Positions 7,883 through 13,089 are shown, counted from the stretch's first letter. The stretch: 13,089 nucleotides of DNA from a virus (IMGVR_UViG_2531839006_000011:1-13089), one strand, 5' to 3'. Notes: a model not told the origin generated them from the sequence alone. A program made the numbers and translations.

Positions 7883-8127
7883 AGATGAAAGAGCTGGTTC
7901 CCGGTCTGCTGAGCTGTCCCGGGGTACCGCCAGCCTGCCAGCGGAAGGCGGTGGACCTCGTTAACCGGTTTCGTCGCGGGGAGAGGAATTACCATGAACT
8001 GAAGGAAAAGGGATTCGGGTATATCAAGATTAATGTTGGTCCGGACTGGCGGTTACTGAGCAGGAACCGGGGACAAACCTGGGCGCTGTTGAGTCACGAG
8101 CGATACAACAATATGAGACTGAGGTAG
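7879..8127 (+). CDS. Hypothetical small protein (82 aa) with RelE/ParE-like C-terminal signature
   Basis: C-terminus WRLLSRNRGQTWALLSHERYNNM fits the RelE/ParE pattern of two beta strands ending in a His/Arg-x-Arg-x-Tyr region. The family call is by-eye inference only. Confidence 0.55.
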   Translation: MKMKELVPGLLSCPGVPPACQRKAVDLVNRFRRGERNYHELKEKGFGYIKINVGPDWRLLSRNRGQTWALLSHERYNNMRLR

Positions 8128-8133
8128 AGCAAA

Positions 8134-8310
8134 ATGACTGATTTTGGTTCAACTAAATATAACGCCAGTTTTGAAGAATGGCATGAAGTGTTAATGGACT
8201 ATGCCGGGTTACGTGGTGGAAGTGCCGCCGATGCCGAAGCATGGCGCGATGACTATGAAGCTGGAAAAACGCCTGTCGAAGCATATTGCGATGAGTGGGG
8301 TGATGAATGA
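8134..8310 (+). CDS. Small highly acidic hypothetical protein (58 aa)
   Basis: ATG 8134 with GAGG about 9 nt upstream; 15 of 58 residues are D/E against 5 K/R/H; its TGA (8308-8310) overlaps the next ATG (8307-8309). Confidence 0.5.
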   Translation: MTDFGSTKYNASFEEWHEVLMDYAGLRGGSAADAEAWRDDYEAGKTPVEAYCDEWGDE

Positions 8311-8519
8311 GCAAAATTGACTATCAGGAGCTGCGTGAGGCGGCAGAAAAGGCAATGCATGACGACTGGGGATTTGACACGGACCTTTTCTATGAGCTGG
8401 TAGAACCATCGATTGTGCTGGCTCTGCTGGATGAATGCGAGACGCTGGCAACTGAGAATGCGAAGCTGAAGACAGCACACCCTCAACTGTTCGGGAAAGC
8501 TGAAGGAGCGACAAAATGA
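8307..8519 (+). CDS. Ea22-like small protein (70 aa)
   Basis: MSKIDYQELREAAEKA...SIVLALLDECETLATENAKLK resembles the LREAAEKA / LALLDE motifs of lambdoid-prophage Ea22-like proteins (recollection). ATGA overlap with the next gene at 8516-8519. Confidence 0.6.
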   Translation: MSKIDYQELREAAEKAMHDDWGFDTDLFYELVEPSIVLALLDECETLATENAKLKTAHPQLFGKAEGATK

Positions 8520-8737
8520 GCAAGCCAACCGACGAAGAAATAGTTCGGGTGTTGGAAGAACACGGGCGCTGTATGACTTACGTCGTGACCAACTGGCTTA
8601 GGGATAAATATCGCACACTCAAAACGGCATACGTTTTGCGTCGTCTAAAGAAACTGGAGTTCGACGGGAAAGTAAAGCGCGTTAACAGTTCTTATATAAG
8701 ACAAATTTGCTGGGAGGCAACCAGTGAGCGAGATTGA
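8516..8737 (+). CDS. Small basic protein, possible winged-helix DNA-binding protein (73 aa)
   Basis: C-terminal YVLRRLKKLEFDGKVKRV resembles a wHTH recognition helix plus wing. ATG at 8516 overlaps the upstream stop. Confidence 0.5.
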   Translation: MSKPTDEEIVRVLEEHGRCMTYVVTNWLRDKYRTLKTAYVLRRLKKLEFDGKVKRVNSSYIRQICWEATSERD

Positions 8738-9323
8738 TTATCAGGCGCTACGGGAACGTTATTCACCTAAGCCAGTACCTGAATGCTCTGTTTGTGGCGA
8801 GGAAATGTCAATACAGCGCATATCTGGAGCACATGTTGTTTATGCCTGTTCCGGTGAGGGTGATGACGGATATTTTAAGATAGGGCGTACTTTTGCAGAC
8901 GAACATTATGAAGAATCACGCGTAACAGTAGTTGATGATAGTGATCCCGATGTGATTGCACTACTGGACGAACTGGAGGCAGCAAAATCAAAACTCAACG
9001 AGCAGCGTGAATATTACGAGGGAGTAATCGCGGATGGGAGTAAGCGTATTGCAGAACTGGAAGCACGGGAAATAAAACCAGCCAAAGGCGAAGTTCTTGT
9101 CGTTGTATCTGGTTTTACTGGTTGCGGAAAAAGCGCCATTGCCGGGGAAATAGAAATCGCGATGAAGGCTATTGGTGTGCCGGTTCTATGGACTAATGGC
9201 GATGCGGAAAAGCGCATGACAGGAGCTGACTGGCTGACAGCGATTGAGATGTACAAACCAAATGTGCGCATCGTGGAAGTTAATGTGCCACGCGTCGCTG
9301 GCATTCGCACCAAAGGAGAGTGA
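8724..9323 (+). CDS. Ea22-like N-terminus / Cys-cluster / coiled-coil / C-terminal P-loop protein (199 aa, GTG start)
   Basis: GTG at 8724 with GGGAGG 6 nt upstream. N-terminus MSEIDYQALRE parallels the 8307 ORF; Cys cluster CSVCGEEM...YACSGEGDDGY; VIALLDELEAAKSKL; Walker A-like SGFTGCGKSA. Confidence 0.55.
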   Translation: MSEIDYQALRERYSPKPVPECSVCGEEMSIQRISGAHVVYACSGEGDDGYFKIGRTFADEHYEESRVTVVDDSDPDVIALLDELEAAKSKLNEQREYYEGVIADGSKRIAELEAREIKPAKGEVLVVVSGFTGCGKSAIAGEIEIAMKAIGVPVLWTNGDAEKRMTGADWLTAIEMYKPNVRIVEVNVPRVAGIRTKGE

Positions 9324-9324
9324 T

Positions 9325-9840
9325 ATGGCGTTAACACACCGCGAACTCTGTCAGATTGCGTACAAGTTCCTTAAGCGCAACGGGTTCAAGGTTTGTTTTC
9401 ATGACCGCTTTATAGCTGTAACCAGTACCGGAGAACAGCCAGATGCTATGGGATTCAGAAATTCAGCATCATGCCTGATAGAGGCGAAATGTTCTCGTGC
9501 TGACTTGTTGGCAGATAGAAAAAAGCGTTTTCGTAAAAATCCATCTCTTGGAATGGGCGACTGGCGATTCTTTATTAGTGAGCCGGGAATTATTTCAATT
9601 GAGGATTTACCACCTGGCTGGGGATTACTTCACGTTGTTAACGGAAGAGTACGGAAAGTACATGGGTGGCCCAGGGGTAATTGCTGTTGGGGTAATCCTG
9701 ACGATAAGCCATTTACTGGAAATAAGCAGGTTGAATGCGATTACATGTTATCTGCATTAAGGCGCATGGAGTTGAGAGGGCACCTTAATGAAATATATGA
9801 CGGTGTAATTGTTAATAAGAAAGAAGGAAACGCAGCATGA
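9325..9840 (+). CDS. PD-(D/E)xK nuclease-like protein, MmcB-like (171 aa)
   Basis: AAAGGAG SD before ATG 9325. Motifs GEQPDAMGF ... LIEAKCSRADLLADRKKRF fit a D...E-x-K nuclease core as in the MmcB/DUF1052 family (recollection). Confidence 0.6.
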   Translation: MALTHRELCQIAYKFLKRNGFKVCFHDRFIAVTSTGEQPDAMGFRNSASCLIEAKCSRADLLADRKKRFRKNPSLGMGDWRFFISEPGIISIEDLPPGWGLLHVVNGRVRKVHGWPRGNCCWGNPDDKPFTGNKQVECDYMLSALRRMELRGHLNEIYDGVIVNKKEGNAA

Positions 9841-9977
9841 TCACTATTACCAAAGAGCGACTGCTGACAATCCAGCAGTGGCGCGAAACATACGGACCTG
9901 GTAGCAACGTTGTATTGCCAGCAGAAGAAGCGGAAGAACTGGCACGAATTGCACTGGCATTGCTGGAAGCAGAACCG
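9837..9977 (+). repeat. About 141-bp direct repeat, copy 1 (5' module of a paralogous gene pair)
   Basis: Hand alignment to 10668-10808 gives 9 mismatches in 141 bp; similarity ends abruptly after the module. Confidence 0.8.
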
Positions 9978-10235
9978 CTGGTGCCCGTCATGTATAAAGG
10001 AATGAAACTGTTAACAAAAGAGGGGCTTGAGCTTATTCGTGACGGTATTGCTGAGGCTACAGGACTGGAAGCAATGTGTATGGCTGAGGCTTTGCTGTCT
10101 GGGGCGTCAGTGCCGTCAGTGCCAGAAGAAATGTATTGGCAGGATGCGCCTGTTGGAGGCAGTAGCAAAGCAGCTGCATACGCGACAGGCTGGAATGCCT
10201 GTCGCGCCGCAATGCTTCAGGGAAAAGGAAAGTGA
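9837..10235 (+). CDS. Hypothetical protein, paralog A of a shared N-terminal module (132 aa)
   Basis: ATGA overlap with the upstream gene; the first 47 aa are near-identical to the ORF at 10668 and the C-terminus is unrelated. Confidence 0.6.
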   Translation: MITITKERLLTIQQWRETYGPGSNVVLPAEEAEELARIALALLEAEPLVPVMYKGMKLLTKEGLELIRDGIAEATGLEAMCMAEALLSGASVPSVPEEMYWQDAPVGGSSKAAAYATGWNACRAAMLQGKGK

Positions 10236-10236
10236 T

Positions 10237-10458
10237 ATGGCTAACTCGTTACTTGAAACCTGCAACAACTGGCAGATTCAGAGGGCGGAGATTTTATCTC
10301 GCAATCCAGATATGGCAATGACAATTGATAATCTGGACACGCTAATTGAACGGACCGTGCGTTCTGCAATTGATATAGCACATCGAGTGGATTGGGATTT
10401 CAGAGAAGCGGAGCGGCTTGCTAAAGAGCAGGAGAAAGCAGCGGGTAAAGGAGACTGA
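10237..10458 (+). CDS. Hypothetical small protein (73 aa)
   Basis: ATG 10237 follows the upstream TGA (10233-10235) with AAGGA upstream; its stop abuts the next ATG at 10460. The track's longer 10027 start overlaps the upstream gene and was not used. Confidence 0.5.
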   Translation: MANSLLETCNNWQIQRAEILSRNPDMAMTIDNLDTLIERTVRSAIDIAHRVDWDFREAERLAKEQEKAAGKGD

Positions 10459-10459
10459 T

Positions 10460-10657
10460 ATGGATAAAAACACCACTGCTTACTGGAATCTGTCACTTGA
10501 TACCGAATGCCCAAAATGCGGTCACAATTTCGATCTGCTTTGTGATCCAGATTTCTGGGAATTTTCTGGAGCAAAACAGGCATGTGAAGAAATAAAAGGT
10601 TACGAAACATGCTGTCCAGAATGTAACCATGAATTTAAAACAGATTTTGTGTATTGA
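10460..10657 (+). CDS. Small zinc-ribbon-like protein (65 aa)
   Basis: Two Cys pairs, CPKCGHNF and CCPECNHEF, spaced as in a zinc ribbon; ATG at 10460. Confidence 0.55.
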   Translation: MDKNTTAYWNLSLDTECPKCGHNFDLLCDPDFWEFSGAKQACEEIKGYETCCPECNHEFKTDFVY

Positions 10658-10667
10658 GGCATAACAA

Positions 10668-10808
10668 ATGACCACTATAACCAAAGAGCGACTGCTGACA
10701 ATCAAGCAGTGGCGCGAAACATACGGACCGGGTAGCAACGTTGTACTGCCAGCAGAAGAAGCGGAAGAACTGGCACGGATTGTACTGGCATCGCTGGAAG
10801 CGGAACCG
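10668..10808 (+). repeat. About 141-bp direct repeat, copy 2
   Basis: See copy 1 at 9837-9977. Confidence 0.8.
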
Positions 10809-11081
10809 GTGGCGTGGATGTGTGATGACGAAGATGGTCGTGAATATAACGGTCATAACGAGTTTTCTTATGGAAGACGCGGGATTCCCCTTTACGCCGT
10901 CCCGCCAGCGCCGAATGGATTGGTTAAAGCCGTAGCTTTCTATGAGCAGGTTAAACGTGAAAATCCGCCAGTTGAAACGGGAGCATGGAAAGACGCCGTT
11001 GACTGGGTGCTTAAACAAGCTTGTCAGGCTGTAAACACTGGCATCAATGAAAGAAGAACAATTGAAGAAAATGATGATTGA
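10668..11081 (+). CDS. Hypothetical protein, paralog B of the shared N-terminal module (137 aa)
   Basis: ATG 10668 with GAGG about 8 nt upstream; N-terminus MTTITKERLLTIKQWRETYGPGSNVVLPAEEAEELARIVLASLEAEP differs at 4 of 47 positions from the 9837 ORF. Confidence 0.6.
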   Translation: MTTITKERLLTIKQWRETYGPGSNVVLPAEEAEELARIVLASLEAEPVAWMCDDEDGREYNGHNEFSYGRRGIPLYAVPPAPNGLVKAVAFYEQVKRENPPVETGAWKDAVDWVLKQACQAVNTGINERRTIEENDD

Positions 11082-11129
11082 GCCGGAAGCAGCAAAAAAG
11101 CGCATTGCAGAACTGGAGGAGCGCCGGTC

Positions 11130-11345
11130 ATGAGAAAAATCAGTGGAATGTTGAACCTGGAGAAGGCCAGGATGCAGTTGCGTGTTTTGTTATCAGGACC
11201 GGTTCCTGCGATCACTCCGATGTCGCATGCCGTGGCAATTAAAGTTGTGCCTGATGCTCCGGATGCGAGTGAGCGGAGGGTGGCTGAACTGGAACAGGCC
11301 TGCGCTGCCGCGGGCATTCGTATCAAAGGGGAACAAGTGAAATGA
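11130..11345 (+). CDS. Hypothetical small protein (71 aa)
   Basis: GGAGGA about 9 nt upstream of ATG 11130; its stop overlaps the next ATG (ATGA at 11342-11345). Confidence 0.45.
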   Translation: MRKISGMLNLEKARMQLRVLLSGPVPAITPMSHAVAIKVVPDAPDASERRVAELEQACAAAGIRIKGEQVK

Positions 11346-11563
11346 AACTGAAGATGCAGGCAATGGACGGCCCGGTGATTATAGAGAGTAGTGATGTGAC
11401 ACAGTTTTACCCTGACCATGAAAGTGGCGGGGAACTCACCGCTGTTGAGTACCTTGCTGACGGGGGAAGAATCACCGCGAGGGTGAGGCACTCTTTTTAT
11501 CAGGTTGCTGCGGCACTTGCCGGGGCATGGCGTGCGGATGATGCATCAAAAAGCGGTGGGTGA
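11342..11563 (+). CDS. Hypothetical small protein (73 aa)
   Basis: ATGA-coupled to the upstream ORF; last gene of the small-ORF train. Confidence 0.45.
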   Translation: MKLKMQAMDGPVIIESSDVTQFYPDHESGGELTAVEYLADGGRITARVRHSFYQVAAALAGAWRADDASKSGG

Positions 11564-11823
11564 GGACTGTGCCGGAATGATTGTCTGTTCCGAAGCTGCT
11601 GAACCGCGACATAAATTTTTTATGTTGCGGTGAAGCAGCCGGCAAACGAAGAGCGTCAGCGTATCAACAGTTAAGGAAAATATCTTCTGAAGCCGGACGC
11701 GACAGTCAGTCCGGTGGTGCTCGTGTGGTGAAGTGTTTAGCCTGCATCTTTGACAGGGTTCAGTTATAAGCATTTCGGAAACCGTTCCCCGGCGCAGTCT
11801 GCCGGGATTTAAGGAGTTTATTT
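11564..11823 (+). promoter_or_regulatory. Structured 260-bp intergenic region upstream of the Rep-like gene (inverted repeats, iteron-related 11-mer, strong SD)
   Basis: Inverted repeats CCGCGACATAAA / TTTATGTTGCGG (11604-11630), CCGGAC / GTCCGG (11693-11714) and CCCGGC / GCCGGG (11788-11806); TTCGGAAACCG at 11774-11784 recurs inside the downstream gene (12644-12654); AAGGAG before ATG 11824. The track ORF here (11581-11769) is rich in rare codons. Confidence 0.4.
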
Positions 11824-13089
11824 ATGGCGCTACCTGCAGAAAGCCTTATTGCGCATACGCTCAGAAAAATGAAGGCCAGCATGGCAGAGAAAGCCAGTCG
11901 TGAGGACGGGAGGATACGCAGTGGGCTGTTGTTTACCGGCAATGTTCACGATTCGTATCCCCGCAGGCTGTTGCTGGATACGCGCCTTTCTCCCCTTGAT
12001 AAAACTGCGTGGATGATGATTCGTCTGCATGCCCTGAATAATGAGGGCGCAGTATTTCCGACGTACGATGAACTGCAGTTACAACTGGCATCTCCCGGGT
12101 GCGGGAAGGCGTCCCGTGAAACAGTGAGCCGGGTGCTGACAATGCTGCGGCTTACGGGCTGGCTGAGTCTGTGTAAGCGGGTCAGGGATGAAAAAGGGCG
12201 GGTCCGGGGGAATATTTACGCCCTGCATGATGAGCCACTGACCTGCTGTGATGCAGAAAAGTTTGACCCACGATACCTGGATATGGTTCTGGATACTGTG
12301 AGCAGGAGCCGGAACAAGACAATCCGGCACACAGCCAGTGAAGTGCTCAGTGATATCAAAAATGAGCCCGGTATGCGGCATTACCACAGCCATATCACTC
12401 TGTTTGAATCGCGTATGGGGGCAGCACAGACACCTGGTCAGCTGGCGGCGCGTCAGCGGGTGAACCCGATGGTGAATGAAAACACAGGCAGAGAGAGTGG
12501 TTCGGATTCCGTACATACCCCTGCACCTGTCGTGCAGGTAACCGAACTCAGTGCTCCGTTAACCGAACTCAGTGAAAAACAGGAAATGAGCCCACTCAGT
12601 TCGGATTCCGTACCGCCTGAAAAATCAGTAACTTATCACTCGGTTCGGAAACCGAACAATTACGTACGTAATATCACACACAGTGTGATTAAAAATACGT
12701 ACGTATTGCCTGAGTCGGTGAAATCGCAAATCAGCACAGAAGACACGGACATGCTGACAAAACAACTGCAGGCGTTGCCGGAAGAACTGGCAGGTAGTGT
12801 GCTGAGCAGCCTGTCACAGATGCTCAGCAAAAACACGCTCCAGAATCCGGTTGGCTGGATGCTGGCTGTGATGAAACGTGCGCGTGAGGGAAGTTTTAAT
12901 ACGCCGGATATGTCCGTGCATGAATCCCGGTCGCCAGCCCGTGCACCATATCAGCCTGTGTACAACCGTGATGAACGTGAACGTCGTCGCAGGAAAGTGG
13001 CGTCACCTGAAACGGTGAGCAACATTGTCGCAGAATTCCGTGCCAGCCTGAAACGTGCAAATGCTGCCCGTCTGGCGGCGCGTGTTTGA
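11824..13089 (+). CDS. Winged-helix DNA-binding protein, candidate replication initiator (421 aa, complete; TGA at 13087-13089)
   Basis: N-terminal region LSPLDKTAWMMIRLHA...GKASRETVSRVLTMLRLTGWLS...GRVRGNIYALHDEP looks like a wHTH initiator/regulator domain; a central low-complexity linker is encoded by iteron-like DNA repeats; basic C-terminus. The replication role is inferred. Confidence 0.7.
   Translation: MALPAESLIAHTLRKMKASMAEKASREDGRIRSGLLFTGNVHDSYPRRLLLDTRLSPLDKTAWMMIRLHALNNEGAVFPTYDELQLQLASPGCGKASRETVSRVLTMLRLTGWLSLCKRVRDEKGRVRGNIYALHDEPLTCCDAEKFDPRYLDMVLDTVSRSRNKTIRHTASEVLSDIKNEPGMRHYHSHITLFESRMGAAQTPGQLAARQRVNPMVNENTGRESGSDSVHTPAPVVQVTELSAPLTELSEKQEMSPLSSDSVPPEKSVTYHSVRKPNNYVRNITHSVIKNTYVLPESVKSQISTEDTDMLTKQLQALPEELAGSVLSSLSQMLSKNTLQNPVGWMLAVMKRAREGSFNTPDMSVHESRSPARAPYQPVYNRDERERRRRKVASPETVSNIVAEFRASLKRANAARLAARV
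12496..12706. repeat. Iteron-like repeat cluster inside the Rep-like CDS (candidate origin or operator array)
   Basis: Exact 15-mer GTTCGGATTCCGTAC twice (12500-12514, 12599-12613); exact 13-mer ACCGAACTCAGTG twice (12541-12553, 12562-12574); GGTTCGG-AA-ACCGAAC at 12642-12657; TACGTACGTA twice (12661-12670, 12696-12705) flanking ATCACAC-aca-GTGTGAT (12673-12689). Confidence 0.5.

Follow-up and report, generated by a model that had tools for sequence, protein, structure and literature searches.

What does a 260-nt stretch of strongly folded DNA do immediately ahead of a gene that resembles a replication initiator? The question is raised by the interval between the end of a 73-aa open reading frame (ORF) and the ATG at 11824 in the DNA analysed here (the window, 13,089 nt in all). 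An earlier note on the same DNA had reported a structured 260-bp gap before a Rep-like gene, and such a gap is present at 11564-11823. The gap is non-coding, modular and partly homologous to phage DNA, and it has one covarying hairpin at a fixed position. The earlier interpretation thus stood in its descriptive part, i.e., that the gap is non-coding and structured and shares an 11-mer with the gene; the roles that it had proposed (promoter, operator, small RNA, origin or oriT) received little or no support.

We favour the reading that the gap is a transcribed non-coding intercistronic leader, the hairpins of which control the processing, stability or translation of the initiator mRNA, and give it a probability of about one half. 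Tuning of the initiator mRNA is the most likely role of the gap, in preference to that of a promoter or a transfer origin. Such a leader, plausible and predicted to be regulatory, leaves current ideas standing.

The element and its locus

The locus is the left arm of an integrative conjugative element (ICE) of the SPI-7/ICEclc/PAPI-1 type in E. coli, and the 801 bases around the gap are 100% identical to many E. coli chromosomes. Elements of the SPI-7/ICEclc type spread virulence, resistance and catabolic genes. In E. coli strain AR_0089, the neighbours on the 5' side are an integrase, a short annotated tRNA-Ser, parA, two small genes, a SPI-7-type DnaB and a 549-aa ParB-family protein, followed in order by DUF2786, DUF2857, a ParE-like gene and about 3.4 kb of small phage-type genes with several pseudogenes. 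On the 3' side are the STY4528 gene, a PFL_4669-family gene, topoisomerase III, STY4534, ssb, pilL and traD. The last cargo gene before the gap, the 73-aa ORF, is 'hypothetical' in the AR_0089 annotation and has relatives in the lambdoid phages ST64B and HK639. The gene downstream of the gap is annotated on E. coli chromosomes as 'STY4528 family pathogenicity island replication protein'; no relative of solved structure was found for this protein by sequence search. The coordinates of the features are collected in Table 1.

Among the closest known systems is the alpA-parA-shi-bisD-bisC-orf96323 region of ICEclc (PMC12409273, PMC7423338), which has, in an order matching that of the present element, the ParB-like BisD, the DUF2857 protein BisC, a gene with an internal TTCGGAnnnCCGAA palindrome, a PFL_4669/InrR-type gene, a topoisomerase and ssb. 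The DUF2857 protein of the present element, which has a weak FlhD match, and its long ParB-like protein correspond to BisC and BisD, respectively, as described in these two papers. The gene orf96323 is equated here with the STY4528 counterpart by synteny and the shared intragenic palindrome, not by sequence alignment.

Table 1. Positions of the gap segments and neighbouring features in the window
Feature	Position	Strand	Basis or remark
73-aa phage-type protein ORF, last cargo gene before the gap	11342-11563	+	phrog_5994, 6.7e-26
S1, variable spacer directly after the stop codon	11564-11593	+	67% identity to L047 lineage
S2, large hairpin cassette	11594-11661	+	94% identity to L047 lineage
S3, hypervariable spacer including CCGGAC/GTCCGG repeat	11662-11728	+	55% identity to L047 lineage
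S4, hairpin c	11729-11777	+	94% identity to L047 lineage
Iteron-like site TTTCGGAAACCGTTC	11773-11787		contains 11-mer 11774-11784; spans hairpin c 3' end and linker
S5, linker, hairpin d and ribosome-binding site	11778-11823	+	65% identity to L047 lineage
Hairpin d (in S5), CCCGGCG 11788-11794 / UGCCGGG 11800-11806, 5-nt loop	11788-11806	+	z = -2.8, 3/200 shuffles
Shine-Dalgarno AAGGAG (11811-11816) and ATG (11824-11826) of STY4528-family gene	11811-11826	+	read from sequence
421-aa STY4528-family initiator-like gene	11824-13089	+	NF040582, 4e-117
Intragenic palindromic iterons	12500-12514, 12599-12613, 12643-12657		
Intragenic half-sites	12539-12553, 12560-12574		

Folding, coding potential and extent of the gap

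The gap folds to -97.9 kcal/mol, compared with -76.7 ± 4.9 kcal/mol in shuffled sequences (z = -4.37 for the + strand, compared with -4.06 for its reverse complement), and its z-scores range from -4.4 to -6.1 across four lineages. The unusual structure claimed for it is therefore borne out. All of the three inverted repeats described previously are present, but the third, CCGGAC (11693-11698) / GTCCGG (11709-11714), is at chance level on its own (z = -0.6, with 47 of 200 shuffles as good).

Two ORFs are found here, one of 62 aa with a TTG start (11581-11769, + strand) and one of 75 aa (11546-11773, - strand). Both are truncated, frame-shifted or changed at their ends in the close variant lineages L047, L049, L050 and L051, and no family match was obtained for either in the NCBIfam or protein family search. 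The 62-aa ORF, the translation and conservation of which the earlier note had named as evidence against a non-coding gap, exists but is broken by indels or changed at its ends in relatives. A protein-coding reading was therefore rejected.

The segments S1 to S5 (Table 1) were defined by aligning the window with variant lineages, including 23 metagenomic copies found by DNA pattern. The adjoining coding DNA is 82-90% identical to that of the L047 lineage, and the hairpin segments S2 and S4 are higher. The spacer S3 occurs as three unrelated sequence types in relatives (those of the window, L047 and L299), and lineage L049 is a recombinant, with S1 and S5 of the window type and S3 of the L047 type.

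The 260-nt gap is not family-wide. Among E. coli relatives of the element, gaps of 260-263 nt are found in the window type, L047, L050, L051 and L299, and shorter ones in L054 (126 nt), L048 and L052 (103 nt) and L053 (17 nt), while in L055 the gap is absent and the genes overlap. The relatives in Klebsiella, Mixta, Salmonella and Serratia have 81-124 nt here, directly 3' of the ParE-like gene; in the Citrobacter and Pseudomonas relatives, the STY4528-type gene abuts its neighbour. These last relatives show hardly any gap and lack hairpin c, whereas a ParE-like gene, cargo and a structured leader have been inserted in the enterobacterial SPI-7-like lineages.

A search for recurrence of any motif of the gap elsewhere in 30 kb of the ICE gave none, and the covariance model described below is single-copy; a regulatory motif repeated through the element was therefore rejected. 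No Rfam match was obtained at E ≤ 1 for the whole window, nor for the phage cassette, nor for hairpin c in L046, L045, L307 and L048. Membership of any known family is not established, and Rfam does not hold the conserved hairpin.

A covarying hairpin at a fixed position

Part of the evidence for the preferred reading comes from hairpin c, which was absent from the earlier note. It is bipartite: an internal loop separates an 11-bp outer stem (UGAAGUGUUUA / UAAGCAUUUCG) from an inner stem. In the window its stability is moderate (z = -2.35). It was aligned across 10 divergent lineages (E. coli classes A, B and C, Klebsiella, Mixta, Salmonella, Serratia, one metagenomic, and Xenorhabdus), the initiators of which are 47-100% identical to that of the window. 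An outer stem around UGUUUA/UAAGCA and an inner stem around CUGCA/UGCAG are found in all ten. RNAalifold gives 20 pairs, of which 12 show compensatory changes among the 10 elements, compared with 6.7 in shuffles and at most 3 with slid partners. The proportion of paired cells is 95.5%, compared with 80.1% in the shuffles, and this value is reached by none of 500 shuffles.

The loop has between 4 and about 9 nt, and the lineages are not alike in their internal loops; this variation favours a folded single strand over a fixed duplex operator. In eight of the ten lineages, hairpin c is more stable on the + strand (mean of -25.8 kcal/mol compared with -20.2 kcal/mol on the other strand), because of G.U pairs. 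This asymmetry is not uniform: L308 has the stabler hairpin on the - strand, and in L305 there is little difference between the strands. Covariation alone cannot separate RNA from folded + strand DNA.

The position of the hairpin is also fixed. With a covariance model (R1), a single copy is recovered from each element, on the + strand and always immediately ahead of the STY4528 gene; there is no other in 30 kb of the ICE and none in the Citrobacter or Pseudomonas relatives. The hairpin ends 34-58 nt before the start codon whatever gene is upstream (a ParE-like gene, an ead/Ea22-like gene or spacer), and in the short-gap lineages the hairpin begins 0-7 nt after the upstream stop codon. Since its position is independent of the upstream gene, hairpin c belongs to the initiator gene, with the cargo inserted upstream. 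Hairpin c thus shows two properties of a conserved RNA structure, namely compensatory pairs, and a fixed position and orientation. The relatives with a gap of 0-17 nt are without this proximal module, and it is therefore not essential to the family.

Conservation of the RNA fold across related elements had been proposed as a check on the earlier note. The hairpin with the 12-bp arms, to which that note had given prominence, is absent in many elements, whereas hairpin c, which it had not listed, is conserved.

The GC-rich hairpin reported just before AAGGAG is also present (hairpin d in Table 1), five bases before that motif. At the same position, most other lineages have GC hairpins with unrelated sequences (CCCGG/CCGGG, GCGGC/GCCGC, GGCCG/CGGCC and UGGC/GCCA), and a series with G-C, G-U and A-U pairs is seen in class C (GCGGC/GCCGC type).

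The iteron-like site and transcription signals

The linker between hairpins c and d bears on the operator suggested by the earlier note. The 11-mer said to be common to the gap and the intragenic iteron cluster, TTCGGAAACCG, was confirmed: it occurs at 11774-11784 and 12644-12654 only, in the 13-kb window with one mismatch allowed, and about 0.2 matches per 13 kb are expected by chance. The second copy is part of the palindrome GTTCGGAAACCGAAC at 12643-12657, which the iteron-like site of the gap matches at 12 of 15 positions, the exact 11-mer among them; only the CGG...CCG core of the upstream site is symmetric. In most lineages read, the intragenic palindromes are near-identical, with four copies at spacings of 54, 45 and 44 nt followed by TCACACACAGTGTGA, and they sit in the segment that encodes a low-complexity linker of the initiator. 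In this respect the gene is like lambda O, which likewise carries its iterons within a stretch of this kind.

While the iterons are near-identical, the upstream site varies across lineages (TTCGGAAACCGTTC, TTCAGTAACAGAAC, ACAGAACAGAAC and TTGTACCGGAT), and the half-site alone is retained. Only the window lineage and L049 have the exact 11-mer; at the linker of other lineages, TTCAGTAACAGAAC or ACAGAACAGAAC retains the half-site AACMGAAC, and the linker of class C gives a poor match only. The concordance between iterons and candidate operator across lineages is therefore partial, and about 4.8 palindrome matches with three mismatches are expected by chance per 13 kb. Of the suggested operator, the iteron-like site does exist, but it is single and degenerate, and its exact 11-mer is confined to one sublineage. 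Autoregulatory binding of the initiator at this candidate site is possible but weakly supported. It would resemble the operators of F repE, P1 repA and pPS10 repA in having a partial iteron just upstream of the initiator gene; unlike them, it is a single degenerate site with no recognisable overlapping promoter and with an exact match in one sublineage.

No promoter of the sigma-70 type (-35 and -10 elements at 16-18 bp spacing) was found in 11200-12000 or on the + strand in 7800-11900, by a scan with the sigma-70 consensus that promoters of the BisDC or activator-dependent type would escape. None was found upstream of the Salmonella homologue, and no promoter-like site overlaps the iteron-like site. 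The proposal of a Rep promoter in the gap is thus left with no sigma-70-like site in the gap, in the 4 kb upstream or in the Salmonella relative. No intrinsic terminator was found on either strand in 11200-12000 or at the phage cassette copy. This absence of a terminator on both strands and that of an Rfam match argue against the small RNA that had been suggested. As for an origin or oriT, the palindromic iterons lie inside the gene and not in the gap, and many relatives have a gap of only 0-126 nt.

The likeliest of the alternatives is control at the DNA level, although we regard it as rather unlikely. Under this explanation, the iteron-like site would be an operator for the STY4528 protein or another element-encoded regulator, repressing or modulating a non-consensus promoter with its -10 in the TATAAG/TAAGCAT block. 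Iteron plasmids offer a precedent, since their Rep uses a partial iteron to repress the promoter of its own gene. The exact 11-mer common to the gap and a perfect intragenic palindrome, the AACMGAAC half-site at the same place in other lineages, and the N-terminal helix-turn-helix of the STY4528 protein (a weak Crp-type match) are all in agreement with it, and 11 of 13 positions agree between the iterons of L299 (GAGTCAGAAACCGAACT) and the class B linker TCAGTAACAGAAC. The TAAGCA/TATAAG block is moreover invariant across lineages, but the invariant blocks are the two arms of the covarying stem. No promoter-like site has a usable -35 spacing, the TTGACA at 11750-11755 being unconserved and 9 bp from TATAAG (11765-11770), and the short-gap lineages have no room for a promoter upstream of the hairpin. 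Finally, the exact 11-mer is limited to the window lineage though the iterons are the same in all lineages, the class C match is poor, and three-mismatch sites arise by chance at the frequency given above.

The preferred reading of an mRNA leader includes transcription from upstream. In relatives, the genes lie on the same strand with small or no gaps, which points to an operon. In ICEclc, one transcript runs from alpA-parA-shi-bisD-bisC to orf96323, its last gene, and the next mapped start is downstream of orf96323 (PMC7423338, PMC2892462); the CTTCGGAtTCCGAAG palindrome inside orf96323, a candidate bisS-3, is not bound by BisD (PMC12409273). From the gene layout and the ICEclc transcript maps, we infer that the leader would be co-transcribed in the E. 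coli element as well.

The large hairpin and its phage counterpart

A very stable structure of the gap is the large hairpin in S2. The 12-bp arm pair reported previously is present, its arms CCGCGACATAAA (11604-11615) and TTTATGTTGCGG (11619-11630) forming 11 Watson-Crick pairs and one G.T, and the repeat extends to 21-nt arms (11595-11615 and 11619-11639) that are 86% complementary around a TTT loop. A 22-nt 3' tail that ends in GCGTCAGCG follows. As RNA, the hairpin has a folding energy of -30 kcal/mol (z = -8.1, with none of 200 shuffles as good). It has a T run in the loop and no U tract after the stem on either strand.

This 68-nt cassette is about 81% identical to copies in about 370 further E. 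coli genomes. It is also present in Peduoviridae phages such as P88 (Xuanwuvirus) and a Gemsvirus, and a pattern scan found it in more than 100 viral contigs, with a near-invariant core, variable flanks and a few copies with a perfect 21-bp stem. The copies in the plasmid collection are of the prophage type only. In the phages, the cassette is cos-proximal, with cos on one side and the stop codon of the portal gene (Q) on the other. If no gene intervenes, that stop codon falls within the GCGTCAG of the 3' tail, and a small + strand gene ends just upstream. Some prophages have an additional + strand gene that separates the cassette from the portal gene.

The ICE and phage copies are alike in the loop and the 3' tail. 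The stem reads CCGCGAC/GTTGCGG in the ICE and CCGGGGC/GCCCCGG in the phage, and both versions pair. The contexts differ: the phage copy usually faces the end of a + strand gene and has its tail at the portal stop, whereas the ICE copy lies between two same-strand genes, and the flanks share nothing. Many related ICEs are without the cassette. Arrival of the cassette together with the 73-aa gene was considered and rejected, because the relatives of that gene are lambdoid, not P2-like; the cassette therefore moved on its own. A P2 cos or packaging signal, by which the ICE might hijack packaging, was also rejected, since some 300 nt separate the phage cassette from the putative cos and the shared sequence is limited to 68 nt. 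The position of the cassette suggests that in phages, and by extension in the ICE, it may mark a transcript boundary, as a transcript-end element, or protect RNA ends. The sharing of a P2-type cassette shows that phages and conjugative elements exchange non-coding modules that are small and structured.

The same hairpins might instead act as signals in single-stranded DNA, folding in the transferred or displaced strand as priming sites of the ssi/sso type or as single-strand promoters, like the Frpo/ssi elements of conjugative plasmid leading regions, with the P2-like cassette doing likewise in rolling-circle replication. P2-like phages and ICEs do pass through single-stranded intermediates, and the covariation of hairpin c fits single-stranded DNA as well as RNA. 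The genes for ssb and topoisomerase III and the element's own DnaB are nearby, resembling a leading region, and the cassette has no terminator features. The gap is accordingly like the Frpo/ssi leading-region signals in being strongly folded non-coding DNA beside ssb-type and replication genes of a conjugative element; it is unlike them in that the leader folds on the sense strand, with short stems and a position fixed relative to the ribosome-binding site. That fixed short distance to the initiator ribosome-binding site, directly after a stop codon, suggests a role in mRNA. A single-strand promoter, moreover, needs a fold of the template (-) strand, but the + strand folds better in most lineages, and a 20-bp stem is too short for both promoter hexamers. 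In view of these points and the lack of an Rfam match, this explanation appears improbable.

We assign a similarly small chance to the possibility that the gap is a mosaic largely without function. The distal 160 nt would then consist of recombination scars and of phage cargo in decay, the hairpins would survive as recombination boundaries or hitch-hikers, and only the ribosome-binding site would matter. The neighbouring cargo is indeed rich in annotated pseudogenes, S1 and S3 are hypervariable with three unrelated types, L049 combines two of the types by recombination, the distal part or even the entire gap is missing from many relatives, and the CCGGAC hairpin is at chance level. However, hairpin c shows compensatory evolution across genera, S2 and S4 (94%) are more conserved than the adjacent coding DNA, and hairpin d has been rebuilt with different sequences in several lineages.

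A small protein from either ORF, or a trans-acting small RNA or antisense RNA against the initiator leader, is very improbable, for although both ORFs exist in the window and antisense control of rep leaders is common in plasmids, the ORFs are broken or changed in relatives and have no family matches, neither strand has a promoter or terminator, the - strand folds are weaker, and there is no Rfam match.

A proposed two-layer leader of the initiator gene

The preferred reading, that of an intercistronic leader acting on the initiator mRNA, may be drawn as two layers inside a long + strand operon (parA...dnaB...parB/bisD-like...DUF2857/bisC-like...ParE-like...phage-type cargo...STY4528). The proximal layer (11729-11823, about 100 nt) is an old conserved module tied to the initiator gene, and it would act in cis on the + strand RNA. 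Its predicted order is a bipartite hairpin of about 20 bp, a single-stranded linker with the iteron-like half-site, a small GC hairpin and the ribosome-binding site. For the upstream message, hairpin c could serve in processing or shield the 3' end; the linker might be used for cleavage or as a standby region, and hairpin d might stabilise the initiator message at its 5' end. Jointly, these parts may set the dose of the initiator, independent of the upstream genes and insulated from the cargo. The distal layer (11564-11728, about 160 nt) is a mosaic specific to the lineage, with the cassette shared with P2-like phages at its core, and would have been acquired either together with the phage-type cargo or later. 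An untranslated spacer as strongly folded as this may also limit Rho-dependent polarity. That the leader is transcribed from upstream, that it acts as RNA and that its parts have these functions in processing or stability is what we infer from the arrangement of the locus and from analogy.

In its predicted anatomy, the proximal layer is like the RNase III sites of T7, the hairpins of the pap and puf operons and the rpsO-pnp leader, in which a bipartite stem of about 20 bp, interrupted by an internal loop, occupies the space between two cistrons and follows the stop codon of the first. As with intercistronic hairpins for processing and stability, a single-stranded stretch and a small 5' hairpin then precede the next ribosome-binding site. 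The likeness to the T7 RNase III, pap, puf and rpsO-pnp sites is one of predicted anatomy, with no sequence relation. Unlike usual processing sites, hairpin c is also conserved in the sequences of its arms (UGUUUA/UAAGCA and CUGCA/UGCAG).

A bolder version of the preferred reading is put forward tentatively, as a possibility that we would hold to be true in perhaps a minority of outcomes. Hairpin c, the linker and hairpin d may together constitute an undescribed, dedicated RNA operator that gates the dose of a lambda-O-like initiator in SPI-7/ICEclc-type elements of Enterobacterales, through processing by RNase III/RNase E or through an element-encoded protein, and that links the replication of the element after excision with the activity of the upstream BisDC-type regulatory operon. 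Very stable hairpin cassettes would, in addition, pass between P2-like phages and ICEs and act in both as portable modules that mark transcript boundaries. The covarying leader hairpin offers an easily mutated handle on whether the dosage of the initiator is set after transcription.

As to translation, the region of the Shine-Dalgarno sequence and the ATG is mostly unpaired in the predicted folds. A ribosome-controlled switch, in which a helix between S1 and S5 would alternate with hairpin d and mask the ribosome-binding site, was considered and rejected, since the pairing probabilities of the Shine-Dalgarno sequence shift inconsistently across lineages. No consistent masking of the ribosome-binding site was found, and blocking of the first 14 nt, a mimic of a terminating ribosome, gave no switch, so a translational mechanism receives no direct support from the folds.

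The complementarity between S1 and S5 is an observation in its own right and is suggestive only. The first 12 nt of S1 (GGACUGUGCCGG) are complementary to 11790-11801 (CCGGCGCAGUCU). Long-range pairing of S1 with S5 is found in the minimum-energy folds of L049 and, with a different sequence, of L047, and the types of S1 and S5 co-occur in all of the four haplotypes seen.

Palindromes within the STY4528 gene

The initiator-like STY4528 gene (11824-13089, plus strand) contains an array of palindromes, which encodes the low-complexity linker of the protein. In most of the relatives read, there are four palindromes at a fixed spacing of 54, 45 and 44 nt. The origin of phage lambda lies inside its O gene, and the intragenic array of STY4528 is similar in layout. 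The same palindrome (bisS-3) has been reported in orf96323 of ICEclc, the gene equated with STY4528, and is not bound by the regulator BisD (PMC12409273).

Positions of repeat and cargo features in the window
Feature	Position	Location
Palindromes GTTCGG-N3-CCGAAC	12500, 12599, 12643	array 12490-12710, within the STY4528 gene
Half-sites of the GTTCGG-N3-CCGAAC palindrome	12539, 12560	same array
Two TACGTACGTA palindromes and TCACACACAGTGTGA	12490-12710	within the STY4528 gene
Small lambdoid-phage-type genes, ~3.4 kb	8134-11563	from the ParE-like gene to the conserved leader hairpin

Complementary segments and hairpins in the proposed leader

The first 12 nt past the upstream stop codon (11564-11575; GGACUGUGCCGG) are complementary to 11790-11801 (CCGGCGCAGUCU), which correspond to the 5' arm and loop of the small GC hairpin preceding the ribosome-binding site. 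A different complementary pair (GCCGGGGUU / AACCCCGGU) occupies the same two segments in the L047 lineage, and each segment type is invariably found with its partner, including in the recombinant locus L049. No consistent effect of the 11564-11575 / 11790-11801 complementarity on the accessibility of the ribosome-binding site is predicted.

The large hairpin cassette of the leader is shared with P2-like phages, in which its common form has an internal loop. In a few of the phage copies, found on viral contigs, the left arm has been rewritten, so that the stem is perfect over 21 bp (GCTGCTTCGCCGGGGCATAAA / TTTATGCCCCGGCGAAGCAGC). These rewritten arms suggest repeated palindrome repair or conversion.

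Gene content around the proposed leader

The cargo of the window includes ead/Ea22-like, phrog_660 and phrog_5994 genes, and several of its genes are annotated as pseudogenes. Other lineages carry zero to two genes in the same interval, which separates the ParE-like gene from the conserved bipartite hairpin (11729-11777); the site immediately 5' of this hairpin looks like a hot spot for cargo insertion.

Further upstream, the DUF2857 gene (7305-7883), which is BisC-like with a weak match to FlhD, is frameshifted. Its product ends at a stop at 7778 and has 157 aa, versus 192 aa in E. coli AR_0089. If activation of the BisDC type is required, the copy of the element in the window may be defective in regulation.

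In the identical AR_0089 locus, RefSeq annotates a 78-nt tRNA-Ser in the interval between integrase and parA (window ~1461-1538, minus strand), but no tRNA is recognized in the window by ARAGORN. The annotated feature probably represents an incomplete tRNA or the remnant of an attachment site where two islands join, with the integrase (1-1263) perhaps being part of the adjacent island.

In relatives L299-L310, the STY4528 homologues are followed by a 'PFL_4669 family ICE protein' gene, in the position held by inrR in ICEclc. Precomputed matches assign it to Pfam PF08900 (AcaB), a family of transcriptional activators of IncC plasmids. In another relative (L048, 2912-3168), two tandem elements of ~112 nt each follow the STY4528 gene. 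Their Rfam matches to the plant microRNA family MIR2933 (50.6 and 39.1 bits) fall below the gathering score of 70, and the pair is probably a repeated hairpin element.
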